IMG/VR virus record: IMGVR_UViG_3300032243_000867
Location: 160,001 to 224,000 of that record
DNA from: a virus
Taxonomy: Duplodnaviria; Caudoviricetes
Strand: one strand, 5' to 3'
DNA: 64,000 nucleotides
The position numbers were made by a program, and so were the translations under genes. The notes below the pieces were generated by a model that searched no databases, was not told the origin of the DNA, and saw nothing but the letters and a program-made list of their open reading frames with translations. Positions 28,675-52,200 of the stretch are shown here, piece after piece (the stretch's first letter is position 1; every line of letters begins with the position of its first letter).

Positions 28675-29466
28675 ATGGACAGTCTGACCAGCCGCATCGC
28701 CCGCAAACACCTCGCCGCCAAGGCCCCTATCGGACCGATGACCTCCTACGAGGATTGGCTCGATAACAATCCCGAGTTCGCGAAGGCTTCGACGGTCGCG
28801 CCCTTCCTGATGCGGAAGCTGGTGATGGAACTGAAGCTTCGGGCGATGCCCGCTTCGTTGCGGTTCTTTCAGCTCGTGGATCAGGTCCATCATATGTCCC
28901 TCGGGGCTCCCGTTGAGGACTTGTCTCAGGAGTTCCGGGCGGCAGCGAAGTACCTGTCGCAAGCCGTGATCCGAACCCTCGGAGATGAGAAGGGTGCGGC
29001 CCTCGCGAACAGCATCACGGACTGTGCCGTGGACAACGCCGCAAACCTCCGCCGTATCGGGGCGGGGGCGAAGGGCGTGGTGTTCACGAACTTCGGCGTG
29101 TCCGTCGCGGAGGTTCTCCAGAGTCTATCCCGCGAGGCGGGGCTCTCCGCCGGGTATCAGGTCAAGACCATCGAGGGGACCCGGTGGCCTCTGATCCGTA
29201 TTCTCTCGAAGGACGAGAAGGGGCTCCGCGACCTTCAGGAGAACAACCCCGATCTCTACACCGAGCTTGTCGGGAACATCGAGCAAGCGGGCAAGTTCCA
29301 ATACGAGGTGGAGAAATCCATCATCGAGAAGGGGCTGGTCCCGACGACGGTGATGAGCGACGGCGTGCCCTCCCGGCCAGTGAGGATTACGTCACCAAGG
29401 AGAAGACCGTCTACACCCCGGACGGGCGCGTGCTCGGCGAAAAAGAGTTTCTCCGGGATCGCATGA
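28675..29466 (+). CDS. N-terminal part of a putative cargo protein (MDSLTSRIARKHLAA...); probably continuous with the downstream SNF2 via an indel near 29365-29380
   Basis: Codon bias is strong to ~29370, then switches to frame 3; preceded by TTCTAT-N14-ATG. Confidence 0.6.
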   Translation: MDSLTSRIARKHLAAKAPIGPMTSYEDWLDNNPEFAKASTVAPFLMRKLVMELKLRAMPASLRFFQLVDQVHHMSLGAPVEDLSQEFRAAAKYLSQAVIRTLGDEKGAALANSITDCAVDNAANLRRIGAGAKGVVFTNFGVSVAEVLQSLSREAGLSAGYQVKTIEGTRWPLIRILSKDEKGLRDLQENNPDLYTELVGNIEQAGKFQYEVEKSIIEKGLVPTTVMSDGVPSRPVRITSPRRRPSTPRTGACSAKKSFSGIA

Positions 29467-32366
29467 TGAAGGCCCGCGAGCAGGCCATGCTGACATCGGA
29501 GTTCTCTCCGATGTACGTGATGAACGCCAAGGGTCAGCCCGAGGTGGTTCGCCGCCCCGACCAGCTCAAAATCGAGGGCTTGTCGAAGCTCTCGGACGAT
29601 GACCTCAACAACCCGGAAATGATTCCCCTCGGAGCGGACGGCAACCCCCAGGAGGTTGATTTTCGGGCGATGACCGACAACAAGGCGTCGGCAAAAAATC
29701 AGGGCACCCGTATCTACCCGACGCGCCGGGACATCAACGGGCGGATCGTGATCGTGGACGGGCGCTTCAAGGGCTTCTACCTCGACGAGATGGTGAACCA
29801 GAAGGGCCGTCTGGTCGAGGGCACGGCCTACGACATGGGCGCGGACGGGATTCCCGTCGCGTTCGAGACGCTGGAACCGGACGGAAACCTCCGTCTCTCC
29901 ACGGTCAACAAGGAGCCCTACGTCACCCTCGATAGCCAGGGGAAGCTCCTCATCAAGATTCCCTTCATCGGCGGCGGTCGCGGCACGAAGGACCCCTTCA
30001 AGCGTGCCCGCGACTCGATGGCGTCTCGCGCTTCGATCCCCGAGAAGACGAAGTGGGTCAAGGGTCCCGACGGCAAGCGAACCAAGGAGAAGGTTCCGGG
30101 CCGCACCCGTACGACCATCTTCGAGGTGCCGAAGATCCGAGACGACGAGGACTCGAACACGCTGTTCACTTTTGAGCCCCAGGACTTCAACACCGTGCGA
30201 TCCGCCGTGGGCGGGATGTGTATGTCGGCGGAAGCCGCCAAGAAGCTCCGCGACTACTACGCCCAGCAAGCACGGGTTGAGGAATCCACCCGGCAAGAGA
30301 ATACCAAGAGCTACTCTCTCGACCGCATCGGCGGGTTCAAGACTCAGTTGGTTATCAACCCGGAGACGGGCGAGCCCTTCGACCCGCCGGTTCTCACGAA
30401 GGACCTGCTGTCGAAGCAGAAGGAAGCCCTGTCGTGGATCGAGGCCAAGGGCTACAAGGGCCTCGCGGCGCTTGATACGGGCGTGGGCAAGACCCTGCTC
30501 ACCATCGCCACGATGCAGAAGATGATTCGCGACGGCGCGGCGGGCGAAGGTTCGCGCTTCCTGTACGTCTGCCCGGACCACCTGCGGGGCAATTTTCCGA
30601 AGGAGCTTCAGGCTTGGATGACCGACGATGCCGCGAAGGGGCTTCAGTCCCGCGTGGACGTGATGTCCTACGAGGAGTTCCAGTTCGCGGTGAACGGCGG
30701 CAAGCGCCCCATGAAGCAGAAGGTTCCCGGCACCGAGAAGCAAGAGAAGATCATCGACCCCGCGACGGGCAAGCCCCAGCGCGGCCCGGACGGGAAGCTG
30801 ATGTACCGGGCGATCCCCGGCACCGAGAAGCAAGTGTCCGTCAAGGACGCAGAGGGCAAGCGCGTCTACGAGGCTATCGCCCCCGACCCCGAGCTCTCCA
30901 AGAAGTACGCCGCCGTGTTCTTCGACGAGGCCCACATTCTCACAAAAGACGAGAACAGCAAGTTCAGCGTCGCCGCTCAGAAGTTCGACCACCCCCGCAA
31001 GGTTCTCCTTACCGCGAGCCCGATGGAGGACGACCCCGACGAGCTCTACATCGGGGTGGCGATCACCAACAACTCGAAGCTCTCTAAGAAGGCGCTGGGG
31101 GCTTCGGGATCGCGGACTCTGACCCCGGCTCAGAAGGAGCTCATGGCCTTCCGCCGCAGGTTCGTGGATCGCAAGGCGGGCCGCGCTATGGGTATCAAGG
31201 ACGACCCGAAGAACGACCCGACGAAACGCCAGGACTTCGATGCGTGGGTCAAGAACGGTATGTACTTCGCGGACAAGCGGACCGTGGGCGCACCGGGGAC
31301 CAGCTCGTACGAGCAGTCTTTGAAGCTCCCCGACCTGCTGAAGCAGGACACCGTGTCTCTGACCATGCAACCGGAGGTCGAGATCGAGTACCGCAAGGCG
31401 GCGAAGGGCATGACCAAGCTGTTGAAGCTCATGTCCAAGGTCTTCCGCGACAAGGCTTCGGTTTCTTCGGCGGATTCTTCCGTCGTCGCCCGATTCGAGA
31501 CGGAGTTTCGCAAGTACCGCAAGCAGCTCGATATGCTGTCGAACTACCCGGACGAGGTGATCGACCCCGCCACGGGCAAAAAAAAGTTCCCCGGCGTGGC
31601 GAGCTCCAAGGTGGTCGGCGCGACGTGGCTCGTCCACGACAAGATCAAGAGCGGGAAGCGCACGCTTCTCTTCACGGACGACGAGAAGTTCGCCGTGAAG
31701 ACGGCGGAACAGATGAGCGAACACACCCCTAACATCAGCATCGCCGTCGCCCTCAAGGGGAAGGTCATCGTCTACCGCGGCGGGTCGGTGTACACCAAGG
31801 AGGGTGTCAAGCAGGTCTTCGGCCCCCGAGAGTACACGAACCTCAAGGGTGAGAAGGTTCCGAAGGGCGAGTGGGCCTCGCACGTTCTTCGCGAGATCAT
31901 GGGCGGCGATCCTTCGGTGAAGGCTATGGTCCTCACGAAGTCCTACGCCCTCGGTCAGAACCTCCAGATGTTCAACACCGTGGTTCACCTTGACCGCGAT
32001 GACTTCTCGAACGAGACGATGAAGCAGCGTACGGCGCGTGCGTGGCGCACGGGTCAGGGTGAGCCCGTCGAGGAGTACACGATGGATGCCGTGTACGACG
32101 ATGCGACGGGCAAGAGCGACCCGACGCTGGACGAGGCCCGGAAGTACGTTCAGGAGATTCAAGAAGAGGTCTTCAACGAGATCGTCCACAAATCCCGCGA
32201 GGCCGAGCTCGGGAAAGAGTGGTCGGAAATGAGGGAGACTCAGGCCAGCATGGTCGAAGTGAATCGAAAACTCTTCGAGATGGCCCTCGCCCCGTACGTC
32301 TCTGCGGTGGCCGATCACACCTACAACCAAGCCGTCACCAACCAGGCCGCGCCCCGCAACCCCTGA
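29367..32366 (+). CDS. Second SNF2/SF2 helicase-like protein (large); start uncertain (frameshifted continuation, or ATG 29463)
   Basis: KQKEAL..LAALDTGVGKT (I), FFDEAH (II), LLTASP (III), GQNLQ..VVHLD..QRTARAWRTGQ (V/VI). Confidence 0.85.
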   Translation, partial: ALPASEDYVTKEKTVYTPDGRVLGEKEFLRDRMMKAREQAMLTSEFSPMYVMNAKGQPEVVRRPDQLKIEGLSKLSDDDLNNPEMIPLGADGNPQEVDFRAMTDNKASAKNQGTRIYPTRRDINGRIVIVDGRFKGFYLDEMVNQKGRLVEGTAYDMGADGIPVAFETLEPDGNLRLSTVNKEPYVTLDSQGKLLIKIPFIGGGRGTKDPFKRARDSMASRASIPEKTKWVKGPDGKRTKEKVPGRTRTTIFEVPKIRDDEDSNTLFTFEPQDFNTVRSAVGGMCMSAEAAKKLRDYYAQQARVEESTRQENTKSYSLDRIGGFKTQLVINPETGEPFDPPVLTKDLLSKQKEALSWIEAKGYKGLAALDTGVGKTLLTIATMQKMIRDGAAGEGSRFLYVCPDHLRGNFPKELQAWMTDDAAKGLQSRVDVMSYEEFQFAVNGGKRPMKQKVPGTEKQEKIIDPATGKPQRGPDGKLMYRAIPGTEKQVSVKDAEGKRVYEAIAPDPELSKKYAAVFFDEAHILTKDENSKFSVAAQKFDHPRKVLLTASPMEDDPDELYIGVAITNNSKLSKKALGASGSRTLTPAQKELMAFRRRFVDRKAGRAMGIKDDPKNDPTKRQDFDAWVKNGMYFADKRTVGAPGTSSYEQSLKLPDLLKQDTVSLTMQPEVEIEYRKAAKGMTKLLKLMSKVFRDKASVSSADSSVVARFETEFRKYRKQLDMLSNYPDEVIDPATGKKKFPGVASSKVVGATWLVHDKIKSGKRTLLFTDDEKFAVKTAEQMSEHTPNISIAVALKGKVIVYRGGSVYTKEGVKQVFGPREYTNLKGEKVPKGEWASHVLREIMGGDPSVKAMVLTKSYALGQNLQMFNTVVHLDRDDFSNETMKQRTARAWRTGQGEPVEEYTMDAVYDDATGKSDPTLDEARKYVQEIQEEVFNEIVHKSREAELGKEWSEMRETQASMVEVNRKLFEMALAPYVSAVADHTYNQAVTNQAAPRNP

Positions 32367-32386
32367 ACCTCCCGTAAGGTAAAGCC

Positions 32387-32656
32387 ATGAACGAACTCGA
32401 ATACCCGGTGACCCTGGAGGAGTGGCAGGCGTACGTCGATGCCATCCCCAGCGACGAAGAGCTCTACGACAACGCCCTCGCGTTCGGCTCGATGAAGTTC
32501 GCGCAGAAGCTCATGTCCGAGGGCTACAACGCCGAGGACATCTCTTCGATCCGCACGATGGTCGCGAAGAAGATGGTGGACGACACCGTCGCCCCGCCCG
32601 GTCGCGTGGGGTCGTGCGTGATCGACTACCGCGAGCTCGCGAACTTCCCGTTCTGA
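32387..32656 (+). CDS. Small acidic hypothetical protein
   Basis: 89 aa; strong codon bias; CGTAA 9 nt upstream. Confidence 0.65.
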   Translation: MNELEYPVTLEEWQAYVDAIPSDEELYDNALAFGSMKFAQKLMSEGYNAEDISSIRTMVAKKMVDDTVAPPGRVGSCVIDYRELANFPF

Positions 32657-32693
32657 CCCCACCCCCTATCCGTTCTATCGCCCGCGCGCGGTG

Positions 32694-33296
32694 ATGGATC
32701 CCATCACCGCTGCGGACGACAACGAGCCCACGAACCCGAAGCTCTGGGAGAAGTGCCAAGACGTAGCGAAGTCTCGCTACACCAAGTGGCCCAGTGCCTA
32801 CGCGGTCGGGCACGCCCTCAAGCTCTACAAGGACGAGGGGGGTGGGTGGAAGAAGACCGCCAGCGCCGCCCGTGTCGCGTCCCGCTACCTGTCCGCCAAG
32901 GGTAAGGCCAAGAAGGACGTAGGTCACGGGGGCCTCGACGAGTGGTTCAGCGGCCACGGTCAGGGCAAGGGCAAATCACCCGGTGAGGCGCGGTGGGGAG
33001 ATTGGGTGGCGATCTCGCCCGTGAAGCGCACGATCACCCGCGAGGACGGGACCAAGAAGACCTACGAGCCCGGTGACATCATTGGGCCGTGCGGCGACCT
33101 CACGGACGACCCCGACTGGAAAGACCTCACCCGGGGCGGCAAGACCCCTTTCAAGTGCATGGCCCGACCCAAGGCCCACGACATGGCTAAGGGCGAACGC
33201 GCTGACAAGGCCCGCGAGAAGATGCGCGTGCAGGAGAAGGCCCCCAAGGGCAAGAAGCCCGTGAACACGCCGACGTTCAAGGACGACGGGGACTAG
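32694..33296 (+). CDS. Basic two-module phage protein with central KKTA / RVASRYL motif
   Basis: Module 1 KWPSAYAVG..YK..GGGWK and module 2 GLDEWF..WV..GPCG..FKCM..KA resemble small domains I recall from T4-like/cyanophage hypothetical proteins (unverified). Confidence 0.65.
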   Translation: MDPITAADDNEPTNPKLWEKCQDVAKSRYTKWPSAYAVGHALKLYKDEGGGWKKTASAARVASRYLSAKGKAKKDVGHGGLDEWFSGHGQGKGKSPGEARWGDWVAISPVKRTITREDGTKKTYEPGDIIGPCGDLTDDPDWKDLTRGGKTPFKCMARPKAHDMAKGERADKAREKMRVQEKAPKGKKPVNTPTFKDDGD

Positions 33297-33418
33297 CGGT
33301 TTCCCGCCTATCGCGGCGTCTCTAGCTAGGTAGATCGGCCCTGTCCGGGGTTGTGCCCCGGCCAAGCGTTAGCTTTCAACCTCGGCGTTAGGTCGCCAGA
33401 CAACCGCAGGAGAACTTC

Positions 33419-34519
33419 ATGGGCATCTTTGCAGCAGTCGGAGCGACCGAACAGACGGCTCTCAATCAAGTGGGCGCGGCCCCGAACCGCTCTGTCCCCA
33501 CCGTGGTGTGGGCTCCCTTCAGCGACCCGCTTCCCACCGGGGCGGTGGCGACGTGGGGCGAGGCCGTGGCGGCGGTGCAATCGAGCTCCGCACCCGAGAC
33601 CAGCATCTACATCTTCAACCCGTCGCAGGACGACGTGTACCTCCCGCCGGGGGAGTGGCACCTCAACAACACCACCATCGTGGGCGTGTCCTACGGCTGG
33701 GACGACTACGACTACAGCTTCCGCCCCTACCAGTACCTTCAGTACCTTGAAGCGGACGGCGGCTACGAGTGGCCGTGCCACATCTACGGGTGCGCGGGCC
33801 TCAAGAACATTTTCTTCCGCGGGCAAGGAAGCGGGACGGCGACGTACACAACGTCCGCCTTCACGATGCCCAACGTGGGCGATACCGCCACCGTGACCGT
33901 GGACAACTTCGTCAACGGCTTCGTCGCGGGCGTGCTCGTCATCATCGACAACGCGGGCGCGTTCGAGATCGACTCGGTGTCCGCCGAGACTTCGACCCTC
34001 ACGATTCGCAATCTGGGCTGGGACGGGAACGCCTCGCCCGGTGACCCGATTAGCGACGAGCAGGACGTGACCCTCGACACGTCGGTGTTCCAGTGCCGCA
34101 CCTACGAGGGCACGGACACGACCTTCACGCTCGACAACTGTGACTTCCGCTTCGGCAACTATCAAGCTGGTAGCTTCGCGGTTTACGCGAACGCCACCCT
34201 GTACCTGCGTCTGAAGAACGGCACGGCGATTCGCTGGTACGCCTTCTTCGTGGTGGGCAGCGCCGTCGTGCAGACGGACGGGTCGCCCTGCTGGATCGGC
34301 AACGACACGTTCTTCGGCCCCGGCTACCTCGCCACGTTCCCGGCCCCCGGCACCTACGTCCGTGAGAACCAAGATGTGGGGGAGTGGGACCAGTACCAGA
34401 GCTTCACCACCTACTACCCGGACAACTCGTCGGATTGGGGCGGCAGCACCCAGATGAGCGTCCACGAAGCCCTCGACCGCCTCGCCGCCGCGTGTGTCGC
34501 GGGCGGGCACACCCCCTGA
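33419..34519 (+). CDS. Acidic beta-rich protein, possibly virion fibre/decoration
   Basis: 366 aa; C-terminal YYPDNSSDW..VHEALDRLA motif of the type seen in fibre proteins. Confidence 0.5.
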   Translation: MGIFAAVGATEQTALNQVGAAPNRSVPTVVWAPFSDPLPTGAVATWGEAVAAVQSSSAPETSIYIFNPSQDDVYLPPGEWHLNNTTIVGVSYGWDDYDYSFRPYQYLQYLEADGGYEWPCHIYGCAGLKNIFFRGQGSGTATYTTSAFTMPNVGDTATVTVDNFVNGFVAGVLVIIDNAGAFEIDSVSAETSTLTIRNLGWDGNASPGDPISDEQDVTLDTSVFQCRTYEGTDTTFTLDNCDFRFGNYQAGSFAVYANATLYLRLKNGTAIRWYAFFVVGSAVVQTDGSPCWIGNDTFFGPGYLATFPAPGTYVRENQDVGEWDQYQSFTTYYPDNSSDWGGSTQMSVHEALDRLAAACVAGGHTP

Positions 34520-34538
34520 TCCAAGGAGACCCCCGACC

Positions 34539-34772
34539 ATGACTACCCGCACCCCCCGTGAGAAGGCCACCCCGTTCGTCTATGTGATGGGCGACGCCGC
34601 CAAGACCCCCGTGGACCCCAAGACCCAGCCCGTGGGCACCGTTCTGGTGTTCGTGTCGGAGTGGGGACAGGAGACCCCGGCGGTCAAGGGCAAGACCGTC
34701 ACGAAGGATCAAGCCGCGCGCGACGCGAGCCTCGCCGCCGCGAAGGCCAAGCCCGCTGGCTACGAGGGCTGA
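34539..34772 (+). CDS. Small hypothetical protein
   Basis: AAGGAG SD; strong codon bias. Confidence 0.6.
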   Translation: MTTRTPREKATPFVYVMGDAAKTPVDPKTQPVGTVLVFVSEWGQETPAVKGKTVTKDQAARDASLAAAKAKPAGYEG

Positions 34773-34813
34773 TCCCCCGCCCACGGTCGTTTCATGCGGG
34801 CGTAACTCCCCGC

Positions 34814-35293
34814 ATGGAACGACCGCACCCCGCCGACGACCCCGCCCTTGAACCCATCAGGGCTGCGATCCGCAAACTCCCCCCGTATCCGTTCGCCGTC
34901 TACGGCGATTCGGTGATGACCGACTACACCGCCGGGTTGAAGGCGTGCGAGACGCCCGAAGCCCTGCGCGAGTTCGTCGCCCGCTGGGCACCCCTGTGGA
35001 CGATCAATTTCCGTGAGCCGGATGTCACCTCCGTTGAAGAAATGTCCCTCGCGGAAGGCACCTTCGACGAGGGCGAAGTGTTCGCGGCGATGGCCACCCT
35101 TCGACAAGAGTCCAGCACCGACGAAGCTAGAAACGAGCTCGACCGTCTGATGCAGGACAGCCTTCCGCACCGCACGGCGATGAACGCCCTCATGCCCCGC
35201 GCGATGATTGAGATGACCATCGTCGCGAATCACTTCGGTGCGCCCGTGAACGTGGCCTGGATTCAGGCTTCGGGCCTCGTCGAGCTCTTCTAA
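34814..35293 (+). CDS. Hypothetical protein (MERPHPADD...)
   Basis: GCGGGCGTAA (34796-34805) 8 nt upstream; good codon bias. Confidence 0.6.
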   Translation: MERPHPADDPALEPIRAAIRKLPPYPFAVYGDSVMTDYTAGLKACETPEALREFVARWAPLWTINFREPDVTSVEEMSLAEGTFDEGEVFAAMATLRQESSTDEARNELDRLMQDSLPHRTAMNALMPRAMIEMTIVANHFGAPVNVAWIQASGLVELF

Positions 35294-35344
35294 CGACCCC
35301 CCGCCCCTAACCGTTCTATCCCCCGCCGTCTGTAGGCCACACCT

Positions 35345-35401
35345 ATGGACAGACTCGCTTGCGTCATTGCTGCTGGTGTTTGGGACGGGGATTCATGCTG
35401 A
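35345..35401 (+). pseudogene. Orphaned 5' end (MDRLACVIAAGVWDGDSC*) of the Ntn-hydrolase gene
   Basis: ACVIAAGVWDG vs ACIIAAGEWGG at 36084-36116 (8/11 identical). Confidence 0.7.
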
Positions 35402-35463
35402 CCCTGAATCTCACACCACGACGGTCTCTTCCATCATCCCCGTGGGTACCAAACAGAACCCAC

Positions 35464-36072
35464 ATGGATACTGGCGGATTGTATCTCCTGTGGCTTTCGG
35501 ACTCCCACTACTACGGGGGTAGAGCCAGGTGTTTCAATGAGCGGTGGCAAGGCCACCTCAAGGCCCTTCGGCAAGGCAAGCACTGCAACCCTTGGATGCA
35601 GCGGTTGTACAATATCCACAAGATGTTTGAGCCCGAGGTGTGCCTGGAACTTCCAACGGGTGGGGATCATCAGGCTGCGGAACAAGCCTGGATTGATGAG
35701 AACTACGGGAAGCCGGGTTGCGTGAATCTCAGTCGGGCCGCCGATGGTGGTGCCATGACCGGACGAAGGCACACCGCGGAGACCCGGGCCAAGATGTCCG
35801 CTTCGCGGAAGGGTAAGCCAACCAAGGCTCCGTCCCTAGAAACTCGGGCCAAGATGTCGGAGTCAGGTCGAAAGAGGGCCAAGATTTTCGGGGTGAGCCG
35901 TCCTCACACGGAAGACACCAAGGCGAAGATGTCGTCTTCTCATAAGGGGCTTGTGTTCACAGAAGAGCACAAGCTCAATATGTCTCTGAATCACGCGAGC
36001 AAAAGGGACCCGGAAGGTTACAGGGAAAAACTGCGGGCCGCTTGGTCTAGGAAAAAGGGAGTCACGCCGTGA
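35464..36072 (+). mobile_element. Free-standing GIY-YIG-like homing endonuclease with NUMOD3 repeats
   Basis: GGLYLL..YYGGRA..RWQGH..L..GKHCN..EQAWID..N; HTAETRAKMS, SLETRAKMS, HTEDTKAKMS; more A/T-ending codons than flanks. Confidence 0.85.
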
Positions 36073-38186
36073 ATTCCAGAACCGCATGTATCATCGCCGC
36101 AGGAGAGTGGGGAGGAAAGCGTGCTCTGTTGAAGTCGAGGGACCGCAACTACACCCCCGAGGTCACCCTCGTCCGCGAGCTCCTCGACGGCGTCGAGGTC
36201 GCGTATATGCGCGATGACGTGACGGGGTGGTGCGAGGGCATGAACGAGCATGGCATCGGGATTACCAACGCGGCGCTCGCCGTGGGGATCGACGAGGCCG
36301 AAGGAAAACTCGTCAAAGTCACGGGCAAGACGACGAAGGACGGCAAACGAATCCTCAAGGCTCTATCCTGCGACAACCTCGACGATGCCGTCGAGTCCGT
36401 CTGCGAGTTCATGGGGGGCTTGAAGGGGCACACGTTCGTATCGACCCCCAACAAGGTGCTCTGTATCGAGCAGACTCGGGAGCACGAGTGCCGGGTGATG
36501 GAACTGAACCCGGAGGATGTTCACGTCCGTACCAACCACGGCCACTACCACACAGACGCCGGGTACACGGAGGGGAAGGATTACGTCTCGTCGGTGATCC
36601 GCCGCGAGAAGGCGCTTCTCACCCTTCGCGATTTGGAGAGTCACCTTGATCTCGGCCCCGGTCTGATGAAGGGCCGGATGAAGGATCGGAACGATCCGAA
36701 CAACATGGTGCGGGACACGAACAATATGTCCACCACCTCCCAGATGGTGATGAACCTCACGGATCGGGAGGCAGTCTTCTACGTCATCCCCGGCAAGATG
36801 GACTACGAGGGGATAGAAGACAACCTCCCTGACGGTTACTCACCGAAGATCAAGATCAAAGTGTTCAGCTACCGCAACGGAGGCAAGGAGCTCGTGGAAC
36901 TCTCCCTAAAGACGGGGTTGCGCCGGAAGTCCGTGGACCCGGTGAAGCTCGCTTCCCGGTACCTGATGGCATCCTCGGCACACGCCAAGTCCATCGCGTT
37001 GATGAGTTTTCTGTCTGAGGTGGCCCGTGACGCTGGCGTCGCCCGACACGTCTACGTCGTCGGCGGTGCCGTGCGGAACTTCATCCTCGGTGTGCCCATC
37101 AAGGACATCGACGTGGTGGTGGACTCCGTGTCGGCGGGCCGGGATTCAGAGTGGTTCGCCCGAAAGGTGGTGGACGCCATCCCTGTCCCGACGAACCTCG
37201 CGACCAACCAGTACGGGGTGGGGATCCTCACCGTGAAGGGGGAGTGGCTGCTCGACGGGATCAACCTGAAGGGCGAGGTGATCGAGATCGCCAACGCCCG
37301 CAAGGAGTCCTACGAGGGTGCGGGGGGCAAGGGATACAAGCCCACGGACGTGTCCCCCGCGACCATTGAAGAGGATGTGTTCCGCCGAGAGTTCACGTTC
37401 AACACCCTGCTGTGGCGGATGCATGACCTCGCCAACGGCCCTGACAAGGCCGAAGTGATTGACCTCACGGGGCTGGGTCGTCAGCACCTTGAGCAGAAGC
37501 TCATCTCGACGCCCGTGGACCCCGACAAGACCTTCAGCGACGACCCGACTCGGATGCTCCGGGTCTTGAAGTTCTTGCTGCGGTATGACTTGACCATCTC
37601 GCCCGATGCTATGGCCTCTGTGAGGCGCAACGCCGCGAAGCTCAAGAATATGCCGTGGGAAGCTGTCGGGAACATCCTCGTCGGGGACATCCTCAAGTCA
37701 CCCAAGGCGACGATGGGCCTCAAAGTGATGCGTTCCCTTGGCCTACTCGACGTGATCGTCGAGATGGTGCAAGAGAACCCCCCGTTCGCGGCATACCTCA
37801 CCAAGCAACTGGCGAACGGCAACCATACGGTCGAGCTCTTGTTGGAGCTTGCCGACATCGGGATCGCGGGGAGGGTGCTGGACTTTTTGACGCCGAACGA
37901 GCGCGAGCAGTTCAAGCAGAACACCAGCGGATGGTCCAGTGACGAGGCAAGGAAGTACCTTGAAGCCCTGCGGAAACCCGCAGTGGACAACATGGCGCTC
38001 ATTCAAGAGTTCTCGTTGACGGGCAGGGCTCGCGCGAGCCTTGTCCCCATTGCTCGCGAGTTCCTCCTGTCGGACCCGAACTTGGCCGACCAAGACGTGA
38101 AACTCAACGACCGCGTGCGAGAGAGGCTCCGCGCATCCCCCGTCCGTGTCGCCCAACGGTTCGCTCGTCTATCGAGCCAACACTAG
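36069..38186 (+). CDS. Fusion: N-terminal Ntn-hydrolase (C45/choloylglycine-hydrolase-like) + class II tRNA nucleotidyltransferase (CCA-adding/poly(A) polymerase family)
   Basis: Cys7 CIIAAG..KSRDR..EGMNEHGIGITNAAL..RTNH; then YVVGGAVRN..KDIDVVV, ARKESY, EDVFRREFTFNTL, FSDDPTRMLR. Confidence 0.85.
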   Translation: MNSRTACIIAAGEWGGKRALLKSRDRNYTPEVTLVRELLDGVEVAYMRDDVTGWCEGMNEHGIGITNAALAVGIDEAEGKLVKVTGKTTKDGKRILKALSCDNLDDAVESVCEFMGGLKGHTFVSTPNKVLCIEQTREHECRVMELNPEDVHVRTNHGHYHTDAGYTEGKDYVSSVIRREKALLTLRDLESHLDLGPGLMKGRMKDRNDPNNMVRDTNNMSTTSQMVMNLTDREAVFYVIPGKMDYEGIEDNLPDGYSPKIKIKVFSYRNGGKELVELSLKTGLRRKSVDPVKLASRYLMASSAHAKSIALMSFLSEVARDAGVARHVYVVGGAVRNFILGVPIKDIDVVVDSVSAGRDSEWFARKVVDAIPVPTNLATNQYGVGILTVKGEWLLDGINLKGEVIEIANARKESYEGAGGKGYKPTDVSPATIEEDVFRREFTFNTLLWRMHDLANGPDKAEVIDLTGLGRQHLEQKLISTPVDPDKTFSDDPTRMLRVLKFLLRYDLTISPDAMASVRRNAAKLKNMPWEAVGNILVGDILKSPKATMGLKVMRSLGLLDVIVEMVQENPPFAAYLTKQLANGNHTVELLLELADIGIAGRVLDFLTPNEREQFKQNTSGWSSDEARKYLEALRKPAVDNMALIQEFSLTGRARASLVPIAREFLLSDPNLADQDVKLNDRVRERLRASPVRVAQRFARLSSQH

Positions 38187-38199
38187 GAAGAGATACCAA

Positions 38200-38913
38200 A
38201 TGGCAATCTACACATCCATCGGCGCGACCCCCGAGACGGCCCGCGCCATGATCGACGCCGTGGGGCCGACCCCCGACCAACAAACCCCCGCCCCGGGCGT
38301 CGGTGACGTTCTCTCTTGGAACGGGACAAACTGGGTGCCCGGTGCAACGGCCCCGGCGGGCTCCCTCCAGATGTACGCGGGTGCGACCGCCCCCTTCGGC
38401 TACCTTCTGTGCAACGGGGCGGCGGTCAGCCGCACGACCTATGCGGCTCTGTTCGCGGTGATCGGGGCGACCTACGGTGGCGGCGATGGGCTCAACACCT
38501 TCAACCTCCCCGACCTCCGTGGTCGCGGCCCTATCGGTGTCGGTACGGGCGCGGGTCTTACCGCACGGGTGCTAGGCGGGACGGGCGGCGCGGAGACGGT
38601 CACCCTCGACGCGACGACCATCCCGGGCCACACGCACACCGGCACGACGGACTCCAACGGGTCGCACGCGCACACGTCGAACGCCACGGGCGGTCAGGGA
38701 AACTACGGCCTCGCCCTCGCGGACGGTACCAACACGGTGACTTCGACGGACCCCAGCGCCGGGGAGCTCAACGTGTGGACCGTCCCGGCGGCGCTGTCCA
38801 TCGACGCGAACGGGGCGCACACGCACACGTTCACCACGGGTTCGACGGGCGGTGGCAGCGCGCACGCCAATATGCAGCCGTGGCTCGCCGTGAACTTCAT
38901 CATCAAGACGTGA
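38200..38913 (+). CDS. Phage tail-collar domain protein
   Basis: GSLQMYAG..APFGYLLCNGAAVSRTTYAALFAVIG..YGGGDG..TFNLPDLRGR; HTH repeats; NMQPWLAVNFIIK. Confidence 0.9.
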   Translation: MAIYTSIGATPETARAMIDAVGPTPDQQTPAPGVGDVLSWNGTNWVPGATAPAGSLQMYAGATAPFGYLLCNGAAVSRTTYAALFAVIGATYGGGDGLNTFNLPDLRGRGPIGVGTGAGLTARVLGGTGGAETVTLDATTIPGHTHTGTTDSNGSHAHTSNATGGQGNYGLALADGTNTVTSTDPSAGELNVWTVPAALSIDANGAHTHTFTTGSTGGGSAHANMQPWLAVNFIIKT

Positions 38914-38915
38914 CC

Positions 38916-40589
38916 ATGAACCACCGCCGCACCCGAACCGCCGACGTGCCCAAGAAGTACGAGCACATCGATTTCAAGCCCCCGCAGTCGGTGGCCGACG
39001 AGGCCGAGAAGGGCCTTGAGTACCGGGAGAAGGCCAGCCCGTCGAACAAGGGCGGGCTCACCCCGGCGGAAGCGGCCAAGCAGGGCATCGGTAGTGGGGT
39101 GCAGCGTGCGGTGAACCTCAAGAACCGCGACAACACCTCCCCCGAGGTCATCAAGCAGATGGCGGCGTTCTTCTCGCGCCACGAGAAGAACAAAGGTGTC
39201 TCTCCCGAGCACAAGGGGGAACCTTGGAACGACAAGGGCAACGTCGCGTGGTTGATCTGGGGCGGCGACTCCGGGCGGGCGTGGGCTGAAAAGGTGAAGA
39301 AGCAGATGGAAACCGCTGACGAGAAGGCGAAGAAGAAGGCTGATATCTCCCCGCCGCTGGGCGTGAAGGGTGGCCCGTGCAAGGTGGTCGAGAGGATCAA
39401 CAACGCCATTCGCAACCCCTCCATGCGGACCGACCTCATCGAGGATGCCCAGACGGGAGACCTGTCAAATCAAGACGCCCGAAAGGTCTACCCACTCGAC
39501 ACGGAGAGCGGGTCTGGGTTCAAGAGTTTCACCATCCTGCCCCATGCCCAGTTCCGCATGGATTACCGATCCATCACGGTCAAGGACGTGGAGGCGGCGC
39601 TCAACTCCTTCATCGTCCACGCGCAGGGTCTACAGAGGTCGAACCCTCGCCAGTACGAAGCTTTGATGGCGCAAGACAAGATCGAATGGATCGACCCCAA
39701 GACGCGCCTGAAAATCGTCTTCGCCACCGACGCAGGGCGCATCGAGATCGTCACCGTGTTCTGGAAGGGTCGGCAAGATCCTCCCCCTGCCGTCTGCGAG
39801 ACGCCTTTCAGGAACCTTGCCCGTCGCGTCGCAGCCCAACACCAGATGAAGGATCTGACCTCCGTGACCGAGTACGAACCCCCCTTTCAAGTTATCGAGG
39901 CCGAGCTCACGGTGCTGGAATCCCTCTGGTCGGACATCCAAGCGGTGCTCGATACCTACGCGGAGACGGTGCCCATGCCGCACGTCGGGCGCATCGCCGC
40001 CGCCGACCTCGCCCTGCACTCGCAGACGGAGGTGTTCGTCAAGTGCGAGCACGCGATGCGACACGCGGAGCGTGTAGTCAATATGTGTCGCACGCAGCTT
40101 CAACTCAGCCCCGGCAACGAGACGGTTTCCTCGTTCCTGCGGGACGCGCAGATGTTGTATGACCGCTTCTCGGAGGGGCGTGCGGCGGCGCGGGAAGTTC
40201 TCTCCGCGATGAGCCAGAAGATCCTGCCCGTTGCGCTGAAAAGCATCGTCGCGGAGGCGGTAGACGCCGTGAAGGCCGTCACCCGGTACCCGAACAGCGT
40301 GACCGTGAAGATTCACGCCCACATGGCCCCGGTGGAGCTCAACAACGGGGTGGTGTCGGCGCAGGTCTTCGACGCCTACGTCACCGTCTACCCGCTGCCG
40401 AAGGACGAATCCCCCGCCTACCAGCAGCTCGTGTTCACTCAACGCACCCTCGGCGACACCAACGTCTACCTCACGGTGATCGACCGCACGAACGCGGAAG
40501 CCCCCGCCAAGCCCGTGAAGGTCACGGACGGGGAGACCGCCGCCAAGAAGATCCTCGCCTCCCTCAAGGGCTGGTCGGGCTTCGTTTGA
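38916..40589 (+). CDS. Multi-module putative cargo protein (phage head-associated-type module + DUF4258/RelE-like module + helical C-terminal module)
   Basis: PPQSVADEAEKGL..FFSRHEKNK..AWLIWGG..AWA; ILPHAQFRMDYRSIT..DV..IVTVFW; separated by RTA, KKA and RRVAAQH. Confidence 0.6.
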   Translation: MNHRRTRTADVPKKYEHIDFKPPQSVADEAEKGLEYREKASPSNKGGLTPAEAAKQGIGSGVQRAVNLKNRDNTSPEVIKQMAAFFSRHEKNKGVSPEHKGEPWNDKGNVAWLIWGGDSGRAWAEKVKKQMETADEKAKKKADISPPLGVKGGPCKVVERINNAIRNPSMRTDLIEDAQTGDLSNQDARKVYPLDTESGSGFKSFTILPHAQFRMDYRSITVKDVEAALNSFIVHAQGLQRSNPRQYEALMAQDKIEWIDPKTRLKIVFATDAGRIEIVTVFWKGRQDPPPAVCETPFRNLARRVAAQHQMKDLTSVTEYEPPFQVIEAELTVLESLWSDIQAVLDTYAETVPMPHVGRIAAADLALHSQTEVFVKCEHAMRHAERVVNMCRTQLQLSPGNETVSSFLRDAQMLYDRFSEGRAAAREVLSAMSQKILPVALKSIVAEAVDAVKAVTRYPNSVTVKIHAHMAPVELNNGVVSAQVFDAYVTVYPLPKDESPAYQQLVFTQRTLGDTNVYLTVIDRTNAEAPAKPVKVTDGETAAKKILASLKGWSGFV

Positions 40590-40632
40590 CCGTCTATCCC
40601 CCCCCCCACCCCGTAGGGAAGGTTCCATCTCA

Positions 40633-41001
40633 ATGAGCGACCAAGCACTTCGTTCCAAGCTGATCCGTCTGGCTCACAACAACCCGGAGCTCCGTCCGCA
40701 TCTCATGCCCCTGCTGGGCAAAACGGCAGGACCGTTCGAGTCAGTCGATTCGAGCAAGTCGGATTACGGGGCGGCGCAGAGAGCCATGAACGACGCCATC
40801 GCCTACCTGCGGATGGCTGAAGAAAACGCGAGCAAAGCGTTCGACCACGCCATCGACGGGGCCGAACAGAACCCCGGGCAGGGTCATAACCTCTTGGTCA
40901 AGAGCATTGCCCAGGTCCACGACGCCCTGGAGGACTGCCGTCGCTCGCAGAGCCGTCCGATGCACGAAGCCTTTGAGGCTCTGACGAACCTCGCCCGCTA
41001 A
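40633..41001 (+). CDS. Small helical protein with N-terminal LRSKLIRLAH..LLGKTA leader
   Basis: 122 aa; strong codon bias. Confidence 0.65.
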   Translation: MSDQALRSKLIRLAHNNPELRPHLMPLLGKTAGPFESVDSSKSDYGAAQRAMNDAIAYLRMAEENASKAFDHAIDGAEQNPGQGHNLLVKSIAQVHDALEDCRRSQSRPMHEAFEALTNLAR

Positions 41002-48179: not shown

Positions 48180-49256
48180 ATGCGGTTCATCTACGACGGT
48201 CACGCCAATGAGGGTGGAATCTACCGGATCACCAACCAGATCAACGGTCGGTTCTACATTGGCAGCACTTGTCAGTTCAAGGTGAGATGGGCAACCCATC
48301 GCCGTGAACTACTCAAGGGGAACCACTGTAACGCATTTCTCCAGAATGACTTCAACAAGTGTGGCGCAGATGCGTTCGTTGTTGAGGTGCTGGAGGTGAT
48401 CCCGGACAGGGACTCCCGCCTCTGGGCTGAAGGTGCGCTGATCCGCCAGCACTTCGGAAAGGGGTGTTACAACCTCGAACCTGAAGTAGGCCCCCACTAT
48501 CCAGTGAACTCACGGCCCCGGAAACCGCATACCGAGGCAACCAAGGAAAAAATTCGTCAGGCCAAGCGGGGTAAGAGACTCCCCCCAGAGGTCGAGGCAC
48601 AACGTGTAGATGCTGTCCGAGCATCCATGGCAAAACTGAAAGCCACCGGAGGAACCCGTGATTGGGGGGCATCCAAGCGTGGGGTACCTCGAACCGAGGA
48701 AGCCAAGGCCAAAATGCGGGAGTCCGTTGAGCAGCGCCGACAGAATGGGACACTGGTTCTGTCCCCAGAGCAGAGGGATCACCTTCGTCAGGTCAACCTC
48801 GGCAAAGTCTACGGTCCGCGTAGCGAAGAGACAAAGGCGAAACTGCGGGAGGCCTGGGAGTATCGTCCCAGGGTAGCAACCCGTGGTCCTATGAGCGAAG
48901 AGACCAAGGAGAACATCCGGCGGTCCAAGCTCGGGACCAGCCACACGGAAACGGCACGGGCTAAGATGTCAGCATCACACAAGGGCCGACCGTTGTCCGA
49001 CGAGACAAAAGCCAAAATGTCCACCGCACGGAAGGGTCAGGGCACGGGCCGACGCCACTCAGAGGAGACTCGGGCCAAGATGTCGGCTGCGAAGAAAGGC
49101 CGACAGGGACGACCCCTGTCGGATGAGACCAAGGCCAAAATCTCTGCCGCACGGAAAAATCGTAGGTCTGTGCCCCACTCAGAGGAAACGCGGGCCATGA
49201 TGTCACTCGCACAACAAAACCGTAGGGCATCCGAGAAGAGTGGGGCTGCACAGTGA
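48180..49256 (+). mobile_element. Free-standing GIY-YIG homing endonuclease with ~9 NUMOD3-like repeats
   Basis: GGIYRITNQINGRFYIGST..RW..H..L..GNHCN..LQ; repeats H/LSEETK/RAKMS; GGAGGGT SD before ATG 48180. Confidence 0.92.
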
Positions 49257-52200
49257 CAACACCCATCATCCCGAAGTCTCCGGTCCTCTACGGGCTGTAC
49301 AGGTTCTTCCCGCCGTCGGTCTACGGGCCAGCGCCGCAGAACCCCGCGCCCTTCAACCTGCACGGGCAGGTGGATCTGGACCGGGTGAAGTCCCTGGCTG
49401 ACCAGATCGTGACGGTGTTCCTGAACTCTCTGCCGAGCAACTATGTCTCGCAGGTGAAGGGGCCGTACTACGTCCAGCAGTTCCAAGCAGCGGCGGAAGA
49501 ACTCGCGAAGATTCAGGTACTGCTTTCCGACGCCTACGAAGACAGCGACTACGACTTCACCCGCACGGAGGTTCTGTACCAGTTCCTCGCCACGCTGGTG
49601 TTCCCGGACTCGGGGAAGTCTGGGCTACCCCAGATCGACGGGGATCTCACCTACCGTGACTTCCTCAAGCGCATGGTCGCCCTGCTGTTGCAGGGGTCGA
49701 AGTACGTCTCGCTGGTAGGCGGGCTGGAAGCCCTCACCGACGCGAACGTGTCGGTGCTGGAAAAGGTCAAGCATCTTTCCGACCCGGGAATCCTATGGAC
49801 CCTTGCCGACCAGTTCACCTTCGAGGTGGACGTGTCGAACTTCAAGCGCACGGGTACCACCACGGCGATCACCGTCGCCACGCACTACCACACCGTCACG
49901 GTGAACGTATCGGGCACGGGCACCACGGCCTCGGTGCTGTACGACGCGGGCACCGGGCCAGCGCACACGCACACGATCACCGACTTCTTGGTGCAAGAGG
50001 GCGCGGGCACGGGACAAGCCCCGCACACTCACGACCTGATCTCGACGTTCCCCGACCTGCCCATCGTCCTTCAGCGCAACGCGGCGCTGGTGCTCCAGGC
50101 CCTCGATCCGGCCAGCACCTTGTACGAGTACCGAAATCTGTTTCGCGAGAACCTACGGGGGCTCATCACCGACCAAGTGACGGCGATGGACCTGTCCTCG
50201 GGATACTACGAGGACTTCCGGCACGATTGCTCGGGCGTGCGGGAAATCTCGGGCACCGACGGCATCGTGGGCGCGGACCGCTTCCTGTTCCACGACCCGA
50301 CCCTGTCGTTTCGCAGCGTGCGTGTCGGCGCGGAACTGGTCATTCCGGTGCTCCCGCCTCCCGCACCTTCGTCTCACCTACCGCGCGAGAACCGCTACCG
50401 GGTCACGGCGGTGGTGCCCTTCCCCTACGGCGACGACCCCATTCCGCGCGCGTATACCACGTCGCCCACGGGCTTGACGGGATTCGTGACCGTGAGCGAG
50501 GGCGCGTTCACGGATACGACCCAGAACTTCACCCTGTGCGGCGAGGGTGAGACTATCACCCTCACCTCGGGGCCGAACGCAGGCACCTACCTGTTGGACG
50601 TGGCCACGGGGTTGAACGGGGGTCCGTTGGGCAACCCGGCTACTCTCGGACCGTCCACGGGCGTGCGCCCCGTGCCGTCCTACCTCCGGGTGGTGCCGCG
50701 CATTATGACCCCCGGTACGGGCATCACCTACCGGGTGATGGTGGATCACCTCGGCGTGCGCGTGCCGCAGACGGTGACGAACGAAGATGCCGGTTGGTAC
50801 TTCTTCGGCCCCGCCGTCACGGACACCCTCTACACGCGCCTCGGGCCTCTGGTGAAGTCTTGGGGTGACGCAACCCCGGCGCAGGTGGCCGACGTGACGG
50901 TGCGGTACGACGGGCTCCCTATCCCCGTCAGTGCCGTCAACCCCTACACGGGGGAAGTCACCCTCGCCGCGCCCGTCGCCCCGTTTGCGCCGGGGGCTCA
51001 CACGGTAACGGTGAGCTACCGCTGGTTCATCTCGCCCGTGACGGGGATGGCGGGGTTGAACACCAAGGGGCTCACCCTCAACAAGTGGTCCCTGCGCGGT
51101 GGCCGCAACACAACCACCACCCCGACGCCGACGAGCGTCTATGGCGGTTTCTACACCACCCCGTTTCCCATGGGCGTGACCCTCGGGCGGTTCAACCGTC
51201 GGGCTCCCTCCCTTCGCATCGCTCACAGGTACATCGGGTTCGAGAAGGGCTACACGGCGAGCCTCAACTCACCGACCACGATGCTCCTCAATCAAGTGCC
51301 GGGGAGAACCTCCGTTCCGTACGCCGTCGCGGACGTATCGCCCCAGAGCTTCCGATACGAGGGTGACGTACTGCCCGCCGCACCGTGGGAGCCCGTGGGT
51401 CCGGTGCTCGGGTCGCTGAATGAGGGGTACTACACCCTCGCGGACAACAGCCCCGCGCAGGTGGGTTACTGGAAGCGGGACTTCGCCCTTCCTACCTCCA
51501 CCACCGTCGCGATGGCCGCACGCTTTCGAGTGGTGAGTGCGAGCCCTGATGGGGTGTTCGCGGGCGTGGGCTTCGGGTTCCACAACAACCGTAGGCTGTT
51601 CTTCGCGGGTGCGTTGCGGGTGCCGAACCCGGTGACGGGAGAGCCTCTTCGGCACATTGGGATTCTCCTCCGTCCGGGAGACGCCTCACTGCGGTCTTCG
51701 TGGACCATCGGGCCGAACGCAGACGGCAAAGTGCAGAAGCTGTCCGCAGGGGCGACCTACGGCACGGTGGCCGTCCCCACGGCCACCGTGCCGACACTGG
51801 TCACGGCGGGCGACAAGTTTCAGATTCTCGACGGCACGCAAGCTGGCGTGTACACGATCACGGACTTGTACCTGTCGCGGCGCACGGGGCAGACCTTCTT
51901 GGTCGTTTCACCCCCGTTCCCGGCGAACCCGGAGCTTTTCGGCAACCGGGACGTGACCCTGTACTTCGACACCCCGTGGGATGCGGGGATGTGTACGTGG
52001 CGTCTGTACGCGAACACCCGTAGTCAATCCGTCACGGTGGTGTTTGGCGGCACGTCGGGGTCTACGACCTCGGTCACGACGAACACCTTGGCTAGCCCCG
52101 CGTACCTCGGCCCGGACGTACTCCCAGAGGGCTACGGGCGGGCGCTCTGGGGCTCCCTCGACCGCATCGCCACGAACACTGCGACGTGGGACTTCGTGCG

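Follow-up and report, generated by a model that had tools for sequence, protein, structure and literature searches.

Introduction

In bacteriophage T4, the internal proteins IPI-III and Alt carry a capsid targeting sequence (CTS), which is removed by the prohead protease gp21 at (L/I)-x-E. In phiKZ-like giant phages, propeptides are cut by gp175 at S/A/G-x-E. Encapsulin cargo-loading peptides and the C-terminal helix-turn-helix of the P22 scaffolding protein dock cargo inside an HK97-fold shell and can be fused to foreign proteins. N-terminal nucleophile (Ntn) hydrolases need their catalytic cysteine at a free N-terminus and normally cut themselves; known Cys-Ntn members unmask the cysteine by autoproteolysis or by removal of the methionine. 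Here, a 64,000-nucleotide stretch from an uncultivated virus of the Caudoviricetes (positions 160,001 to 224,000 of IMG/VR record IMGVR_UViG_3300032243_000867; in the following, the window) was analyzed, with a focus on two peptide tags encoded between positions 28675 and 41001: a short basic motif and a 26-residue element named the LRSK module. These tags are associated with the tripeptide [KR]-x-A, stand directly before the nucleophile of Ntn hydrolases, and occur on enzymes of the polyvalent type as well as on genes located between portal and protease.

Like the T4 CTS, the tags are short peptides that are common to unrelated proteins and joined to the putative protease site of the lineage. 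In addition, T4-type leaders are present on Ntn, HAD and DUF5872-like homologues in four AT-rich contigs, and a T4-type protease is encoded on two of these. In contrast to T4, where the tag is N-terminal and ends in (L/I)-x-E, the tags described here are also found internally or C-terminally, have other sequences, adjoin a basic-x-Ala site and accompany another protease family; moreover, there are two tag types, one of them 26 residues long and often repeated. As in phiKZ, many head and cargo proteins of a giant phage would be trimmed at one short consensus. However, phiKZ has Glu at P1, uses N-terminal propeptides only, belongs to an unrelated group and has no portable 26-residue module. The encapsulin and P22 elements are likewise short terminal peptides or small helix-turn-helix structures, but they are not cleaved, differ in sequence and were shown by experiment to bind their shell. 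Isopenicillin-N acyltransferase, bile salt hydrolase/penicillin V acylase and NAAA share fold and N-terminal Cys nucleophile with the Ntn domain of the window; here, in contrast, the stretch preceding the cysteine conforms to patterns of tags or phage proteases that are specific to the lineage.

According to Iyer, Burroughs, Anand, de Souza and Aravind (2017; PMC5512222), phage-type polyvalent proteins are multi-domain conflict enzymes of portal/terminase phages that are predicted to be packaged and injected, and their processing by an in-built metallopeptidase was proposed. The packaging context of Alt is treated in the same article, and in its passages on cleavage, linkers and processing no shared linker or tag motif was found. 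The domains shared with these proteins are 2H (g114 of the phage studied here), InPase plus 2H (a relative on contig L004) and RelA_SpoT (bearers of the LRSK module). Most tagged proteins described here differ from polyvalent proteins in being small or two-domain, and their junctions bear a defined motif. The tags would apply the established principle of capsid targeting and propeptides in a variant form, which differs in site and protease family, both new, and in employing a widespread module without a name.

Results

A short basic tag recurs on unrelated proteins

The source record is a single virus record of 265,895 bp with 64% G+C and a CheckV completeness of 59%, for which 259 genes were called by third-position G+C (gene numbers g refer to this set). 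The phage is a member of a huge-phage clade with a relationship to Bacillus phage G. Its capsid protein shares 93.5% identity with the counterpart in the uncultured 485-kb phage LR745208.1 (W02; 55% G+C), 48% with that of Tunturiibacter phage Tunturi_5 and 38% with phage G gp27 (PDB 6WKK). W02 and a 105-kb relative (G001) were used for comparison.

The original prediction had listed copies of the basic motif at termini and domain junctions of proteins in the region 28675-41001, and all positions were confirmed by reading the letters. The regular expression set at that time, [RK][VIL]A.[RKQ][YFH], matched 17 times in the 259 called proteins as compared to 1.9 ± 1.4 times (maximum 8) in 200 residue shuffles, and a strict version ending in a hydrophobic residue matched 9 times (0.4 in shuffles). 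Eleven of the 17 matches fell outside the region, and tags were found across the whole genome. The enrichment was replicated in W02 (17 vs 3.5 ± 1.9; strict version 11 vs 0.8), in G001 (5 vs 0.7) and in 73 IMG/VR loci, which had been picked via the LRSK module (33 vs 4.5 ± 1.7). In Tunturi_5, the expression was not enriched (5 vs 2.3). The claim of a shared motif on unrelated proteins was thus borne out.

The tag has the consensus [RK]-[VI]-A-x-[RK]-[YFH]-L, comprises about nine residues and is basic and amphipathic. Since codon choice varies among the copies, selection acts at the peptide level. New copies were found at extreme C-termini (...RVAAQYLSSR, ...RVASRFLGR and ...RVARRYASRTRR), and looser copies at the ends of g112, g113 and g114. 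The matches in g054, in g072 and at residue 13 of g114 were rejected as parts of conserved domains. RIAAA at 39990 (context GRIAAA, 39987-40004), which had been counted as an instance, did not qualify as a copy by any of the criteria applied.

The LRSK module is widespread and often repeated

The second tag is a 26-residue module with the consensus LRSKLIRLAHxxPxLRPHLLPLL. Nine copies were aligned in this record (seven N-terminal, two internal), 12 were present in W02 and five in G001; none was found in Tunturi_5 or in phage G. A profile search of 1.84 billion protein representatives detected 3,279 bearers (E≤0.001), of which 373 reached E≤1e-10; many of the bearers contain two to six copies, and the module has positions that are invariant across the family. 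The module had no match in Pfam and none in PHROGs. Bearers include RelA/SpoT-domain and GNAT-domain proteins; in one (P0052), a ParB-like motif was seen by eye that Pfam does not recognize. In IMG/VR, the module occurs on large contigs (50-485 kb) with several copies apiece; of 110 copies, 75 stand at the N-terminus, in many cases on small single-domain genes in arrays. BLAST-type searches of sequenced phages gave no match, whether the query was the DNA of the region, g036, the SNF2 protein or a protein with LRSK repeats; the module is too short for such searches to have power in a database of that size. The original prediction had grouped LRSK with the basic motif. This holds functionally, as one LRSK leader ends in K-S-A before a cysteine (see below), while in sequence they are two distinct modules rather than one motif.

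On one contig (L072:1816-4931), an LRSK module opens each of four successive genes; in the first of them, acidic linkers lie between four copies in a scaffold-like arrangement; the contigs of such scaffold-like LRSK-repeat proteins are too short to show head genes. The C-terminus of the head-maturation protease (…TLIRLAKL…), considered as an LRSK half-module, scored below threshold with the position matrix.

Tags and putative lineage-specific cut sites directly precede the Ntn nucleophile

The AlphaFold2 model of the Ntn domain (predicted local distance difference test 93) showed the alpha-beta-beta-alpha Cys-Ntn hydrolase fold, and Foldseek retrieved isopenicillin-N acyltransferase (2X1D), bile salt hydrolases and NAAA with E values of 1e-9 to 1e-6. 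Sequence and profile searches of the PDB with this domain returned nothing meaningful (with the single sequence, one sub-threshold chance match to an antibody chain). In an alignment of 28 Ntn homologues, the cysteine was invariant and came first.

Leaders were then surveyed in 120 Ntn homologues; the cysteine was located in 110 and not in 10. The residues before it were [KR]-x-A in 55 of the 110 and x-x-E in 44, with L (36), I (7) or V (1) at P3; seven homologues had only the methionine, and four had other residues. R-T-A before the cysteine, as pointed out in the original prediction, is one case of a rule. An RVAxRYL-like motif was present in 30 of the 38 [KR]-x-A leaders of at least 14 residues (e.g., ...RVAARFLEASLPKKA|C and ...RVAARYLSRTA|C), as compared to 0 of the 44 Glu-type leaders, none of which had an LRSK tag either. 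In one homologue, the leader is a whole LRSK module ending in K-S-A|C. Leader length varied from 5 to 51 residues while P3 and P1 stayed the same.

The end of the Glu-type leaders matches the site of T4 gp21. Four contigs with such leaders (L006-L009) were examined; they are AT-rich, two of the four encode Peptidase_S77, and the leader MIKLxxLLxE is also present on adjoining NT5C/HAD, DUF5872-like and GGCT genes. Cargo that is shared at least in part (Ntn hydrolase, HAD-type phosphatase, DUF5872-like protein) thus carries lineage-specific leaders whose last residues track the protease of the lineage, and this is the strongest support for R-T-A|C as a processing site. In the AT-rich marine contig L006 (481-10113), MIKLxxLLxE was seen on at least eight neighboring genes, including an Ntn hydrolase with the cysteine right after the Glu of the leader.

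It could be argued that the leader pattern reflects autoproteolysis and shared ancestry, and that the remaining copies serve as helix caps or linkers, disseminated by recombination and without a common reader. All structural relatives of the domain (AAT, NAAA and PVA; fold match by Foldseek) are known to self-mature, and the division into two leader classes parallels sequence similarity to the query. This explanation nevertheless appears very improbable: the same leaders stand on unrelated neighboring genes in both lineages, P3 and P1 are constant over the whole range of leader lengths, and the invariant positions of LRSK are kept in its 3,279 cluster representatives.

Tags are conserved and travel with domain cassettes

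The tags are conserved at the protein level, travel with domain cassettes and mark their borders. The short tag was retained between orthologues of 50-65% identity in g116 (HRVASRHL vs HRVASAYI), g125 (ERVAHRHL vs SRVAKRFL) and g055. Among 18 aligned SNF2 homologues (42-99% identity), the N-terminal MDSxxxR[IV]AxR[HYF][LI] was retained in most; a few had a weakened tag, and one lacked the N-terminus. The C-terminal RVAQRF of the Ntn-CCA protein was retained in an 83%-identical relative (L001) and in three stand-alone Ntn homologues.

Cassette exchange was visible at several places. In W02, HAD and topoisomerase IB are part of one protein and are joined at ...SARNVAAKYQEKKK..., whereas here the HAD gene stops after ...AAKVASLYLSRRQ, and the next gene encodes a 2H domain ending in ...TRVAARYKSKKK, followed by the topoisomerase (g114). 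A polyprotein on contigs L002-L005 has a 44%-identical CCA domain with KLAHRHV at the same place, preceded by a 2H domain rather than by Ntn; on L004, InPase (PF18823) was also recognized in this polyprotein, a domain that characterizes phage-type polyvalent proteins (PMC5512222). The G001 homologue of the 201-aa protein contains an insert of about 355 aa with HExxH exactly 5' of ASAARVASRYL. This HExxH insert may be a polyvalent-protein metallopeptidase. The insert with its zincin-like motif is not recognized by Pfam; the homologue that contains it is encoded at L043:2879-4561 (minus strand). The description of the bearers as polyprotein-like enzymes was confirmed in that two unrelated enzymatic domains share one polypeptide in the Ntn-CCA protein and in g114 (2H and topoisomerase IB), which fits the polyvalent type.

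Fusion and fission at tags, seen directly in these comparisons, would also be expected if the tags were extended recognition sites of a prohead protease or a polyvalent metallopeptidase without a targeting role, terminal copies being leftovers of gene fission. With some Ntn leaders ending in ...R-V-A|C, the short motif could serve as a cut site in its own right; HExxH domains, which Pfam does not recognize, adjoin tags in relatives, as would fit the self-processing of polyvalent proteins suggested in PMC5512222. We consider a role restricted to cleavage distinctly unlikely, because orthologues, and the SNF2 family as well, retain the terminal copies, as would not be expected of leftovers, and because the LRSK copies in IMG/VR are predominantly N-terminal on small single-domain proteins in arrays. 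Furthermore, Pfam recognized no metallopeptidase domain in the tagged proteins of this genome.

[KR]-x-A flanks the LRSK module, and [KR]-x-A-S clusters in the scaffold-position protein

The tripeptide is strongly conserved in specific contexts. In LRSK copies with downstream sequence, [KR]-x-A follows just after LLPLL in 82%, with Ala at module position 27 or 28, and it stands exactly upstream of 34% of the internal copies, with an estimated chance expectation of about 2% per position. N-terminal copies begin with M-S-L-R-S, the same as the product expected from a cut at K-K-A|S-L-R-S. [KR]-x-A-S was modestly enriched genome-wide (79 vs 52 ± 7) and most concentrated in the scaffold-position protein, with six occurrences here (<0.95 expected), six in W02 and four in Tunturi_5. 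K-V-A-S near the scaffold C-terminus is common to these three phages, and the tail of the phage G protease contains K-V-A-S and K-I-A-S. The pattern [ILMVYG][KR]TA[AG] occurred 13 times (3.7 in shuffles), but it was devised post hoc and is not taken as evidence. I-I-K-T-A-G in the N-terminal region of the decoration-like protein was dismissed as a cut site, since the closest relative does not conserve it.

Relative to the start of the window, the head module is situated some 60-75 kb upstream. Tagged genes g112-g116 sit between portal and protease both here and in W02. The protease (g117) had no match in a PDB sequence search, and neither Peptidase_S77 (PF03420) nor S78 was matched anywhere in the record. 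The paper on phage G holds no data on cleavage sites.

Some further features of the head module were observed. The intein of g117 bears the LAGLIDADG homing endonuclease (gene at L018:299-2827, i.e., genome positions 98299-100827, upstream of the window); the W02 protease is the intein-free counterpart with 474 aa. The acidic protein g115 (L011:13805-14527) ends in K-[TK]-A-S-x-L-F-G-L-F, which is conserved in its W02 homologue, and both contain the mini-module F-[DN]-P-x-x-I-G...P-[FY]-M-x-G-x-F-T, also present in metagenomic LRSK-repeat proteins. Directly 3' of the capsid gene, an open frame of 784 aa (L018:6288-8642) had been overlooked by the G+C-based gene calling; it has Cys-rich N-terminal repeats, and its C-terminal part resembles a DNA methyltransferase.

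The tags might instead dock to a shared partner other than the capsid, such as a machine for chaperoning or degradation, an assembly for replication or RNA repair, or nucleic acid, [KR]-x-A being simply part of the module sequence. Much of the tagged set works on nucleic acids or is consistent with RNA repair (CCA, 2H, HAD_SAK_1, topoisomerase IB, SNF2), which together with the basic, amphipathic character of the tag and its spread over the entire genome would suit such a partner. Complex prediction with the capsid protein and the first 45 residues of an LRSK-tagged protein gave a score of 0.00, which is evidence neither way. Nonetheless, a partner of this kind is unlikely, since it leaves unexplained why tag and [KR]-x-A precede an obligate N-terminal nucleophile exactly, why a T4-type CTS with the gp21 site occupies the homologous position in the (L/I)-x-E contigs examined, why [KR]-x-A-S is concentrated in scaffold proteins and why tagged genes keep their place between portal and protease.

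Discussion

By analogy with the described packaging and propeptide systems, it seems reasonably probable that the elements are tags which can be removed, at a cut site specific to the lineage, from cargo enzymes of the polyvalent type in this huge-phage clade. In the proposed mechanism, two interchangeable peptide tags, i.e., the short basic motif and the helix-Pro-helix LRSK module, would label otherwise unrelated enzymes (SNF2 helicase, Ntn-CCA fusion, topoisomerase IB, 2H phosphoesterase, HAD phosphatase) at N-termini, C-termini or between domains, bordered by [KR]-x-A and then a small residue. The tags would bring these proteins into the procapsid like the T4 CTS, and [KR]-x-A would be the cut site of the head-maturation protease of the lineage. 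Cleavage inside the procapsid would take the tags off, separate the domains and unmask the Ntn nucleophile. Docking of the tag on the protease or scaffold core, followed by the cut, might join both roles, which is speculative. A wider formulation can be offered tentatively: a novel and widespread capsid-loading system of huge phages, with two portable tags and a head protease cutting after [KR]-x-A, in which maturation frees domains and switches on zymogens such as the Ntn hydrolase, and in which the tags may dock on the protease/scaffold core.

Several observations weigh against packaging and cleavage. Phage G and Tunturi_5 have the same protease family, yet they are without tags. The tagged genes of the window are located about 90 kb downstream of the head module, among tail-like genes; the setting of polyvalent proteins beside head genes is matched by g112-g116 and not by these genes. 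(K/R)-x-A had been proposed as a general junction code; this could not be sustained, as the generic tripeptide is not enriched in the whole proteome (845 vs 819 ± 26 in shuffles; first 40 residues, 126 vs 111 ± 10) and stands out in specific contexts only. In the capsid protein, Y-I-K-T-A-A-G lies inside the conserved N-arm, where phage G has E-T-E-E-G; K-T-A-A-G cannot be called a cut site. The tag at the Ntn/CCA junction has no [KR]-x-A downstream, just its own K-L-A. Finally, the residues before the cysteine could reflect autoprocessing and clade history.

Genes of the region

Table 1. Genes, tags and head-module components of the phage. Positions refer to the window.
Feature	Position	Strand	Remarks
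SNF2-family helicase	28675..32366	+	Pfam SNF2-rel_dom and ResIII
SNF2 N-terminal tag RIARKHL	28693..28713	+	residues 7-13
201-aa protein: DUF5872-like N-terminal part, tag, C-terminal domain	32691..33296	+	weak Pfam DUF5872 match
KKTA-SAA-RVASRYL-SA-KGKA, [KR]-x-A on either side of tag	32850..32909	+	letters read (KKTA 32850-32861; RVASRYL 32871-32891)
Gene without product name	33419-34519		
GIY-YIG/NUMOD3 homing-endonuclease-like gene	35464-36072		
Cys-Ntn hydrolase fused to CCA-adding/poly(A) polymerase-family enzyme, 705 aa	36069..38186	+	Pfam PolyA_pol, weak AAT match
Six-residue leader M-N-S-R-T-A directly 5' of catalytic Cys	36069..36086	+	Cys codon 36087-36089
Tag KLASRYL at Ntn/CCA junction	36945..36965	+	residue 293; Pfam matches at 45-180 and 328-479
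Tag RVAQRF of Ntn-CCA protein	38145..38162	+	13 residues from C-terminus
Tail-collar fibre protein	38200-38913		
557-aa multi-part protein	38916..40589	+	leader MNHRRTRTA|D; internal KKKA|D junction 39330-39344; tag RRVAAQH 39822-39842
122-aa protein	40633..41001	+	residues 6-33 (40648-40731): LRSK module ending LLGKTA|G
Regular-expression match LRIAHRYI	51215..51232	+	inside 1880-aa protein 49253-54895; tag status uncertain
Large terminase g110			head module
Portal g111			head module
Five genes g112-g116			head module, following g111
Head-maturation protease g117			matches phrog_18299; split by LAGLIDADG intein
Scaffold-like protein g118			acidic, 508 aa
Decoration-like protein g119			head module
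Major capsid protein g120			293 aa

The SNF2 helicase gene falls into two frames here (28675-29371 and 29373-32366), owing to the loss of one C in a CCCC run near 29370 (window 29355-29385). A 99%-identical protein of 1230 aa (P0151) is intact across the break and reads ...DGVPLPASEDY..., and in undisrupted relatives a single protein has about 1230 aa. Either the gene was inactivated recently, or the frameshift stems from an error in sequencing or assembly.

The end of the GIY-YIG/NUMOD3 gene overlaps the start of the Ntn-CCA gene by 4 bases. In the relative L001 (4896-8864 vs window 38175-38790; 83% identical), most of the tail-collar fibre gene is missing, and the Ntn-CCA frame continues via an out-of-frame remnant into the next gene (1323 codons, 1289 aa from the called start). 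The sole Pfam match of the 557-aa protein is DUF4258, below threshold, and its paralogue g127 shares the GPCKVV domain, which there comes after the start MTMRGLRA|D. The 'RelE-like' module, also named in the original prediction, has a single sub-threshold Pfam match behind it. A search of the ESM Atlas with the 122-aa protein gave no usable match.

Implications

If the proposed packaging and cleavage hold, the tags and their site would provide a sequence rule that predicts which proteins huge uncultivated phages deliver with their DNA, i.e., first-strike enzymes against host defences. They would also define a new specificity for a head-maturation protease family without a Pfam model, give an annotation to an unnamed module in more than 3,000 protein clusters, and represent a natural case of an enzyme held inactive until capsid maturation. 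The portable tags could then also be put to practical use, to carry foreign proteins into phage capsids.

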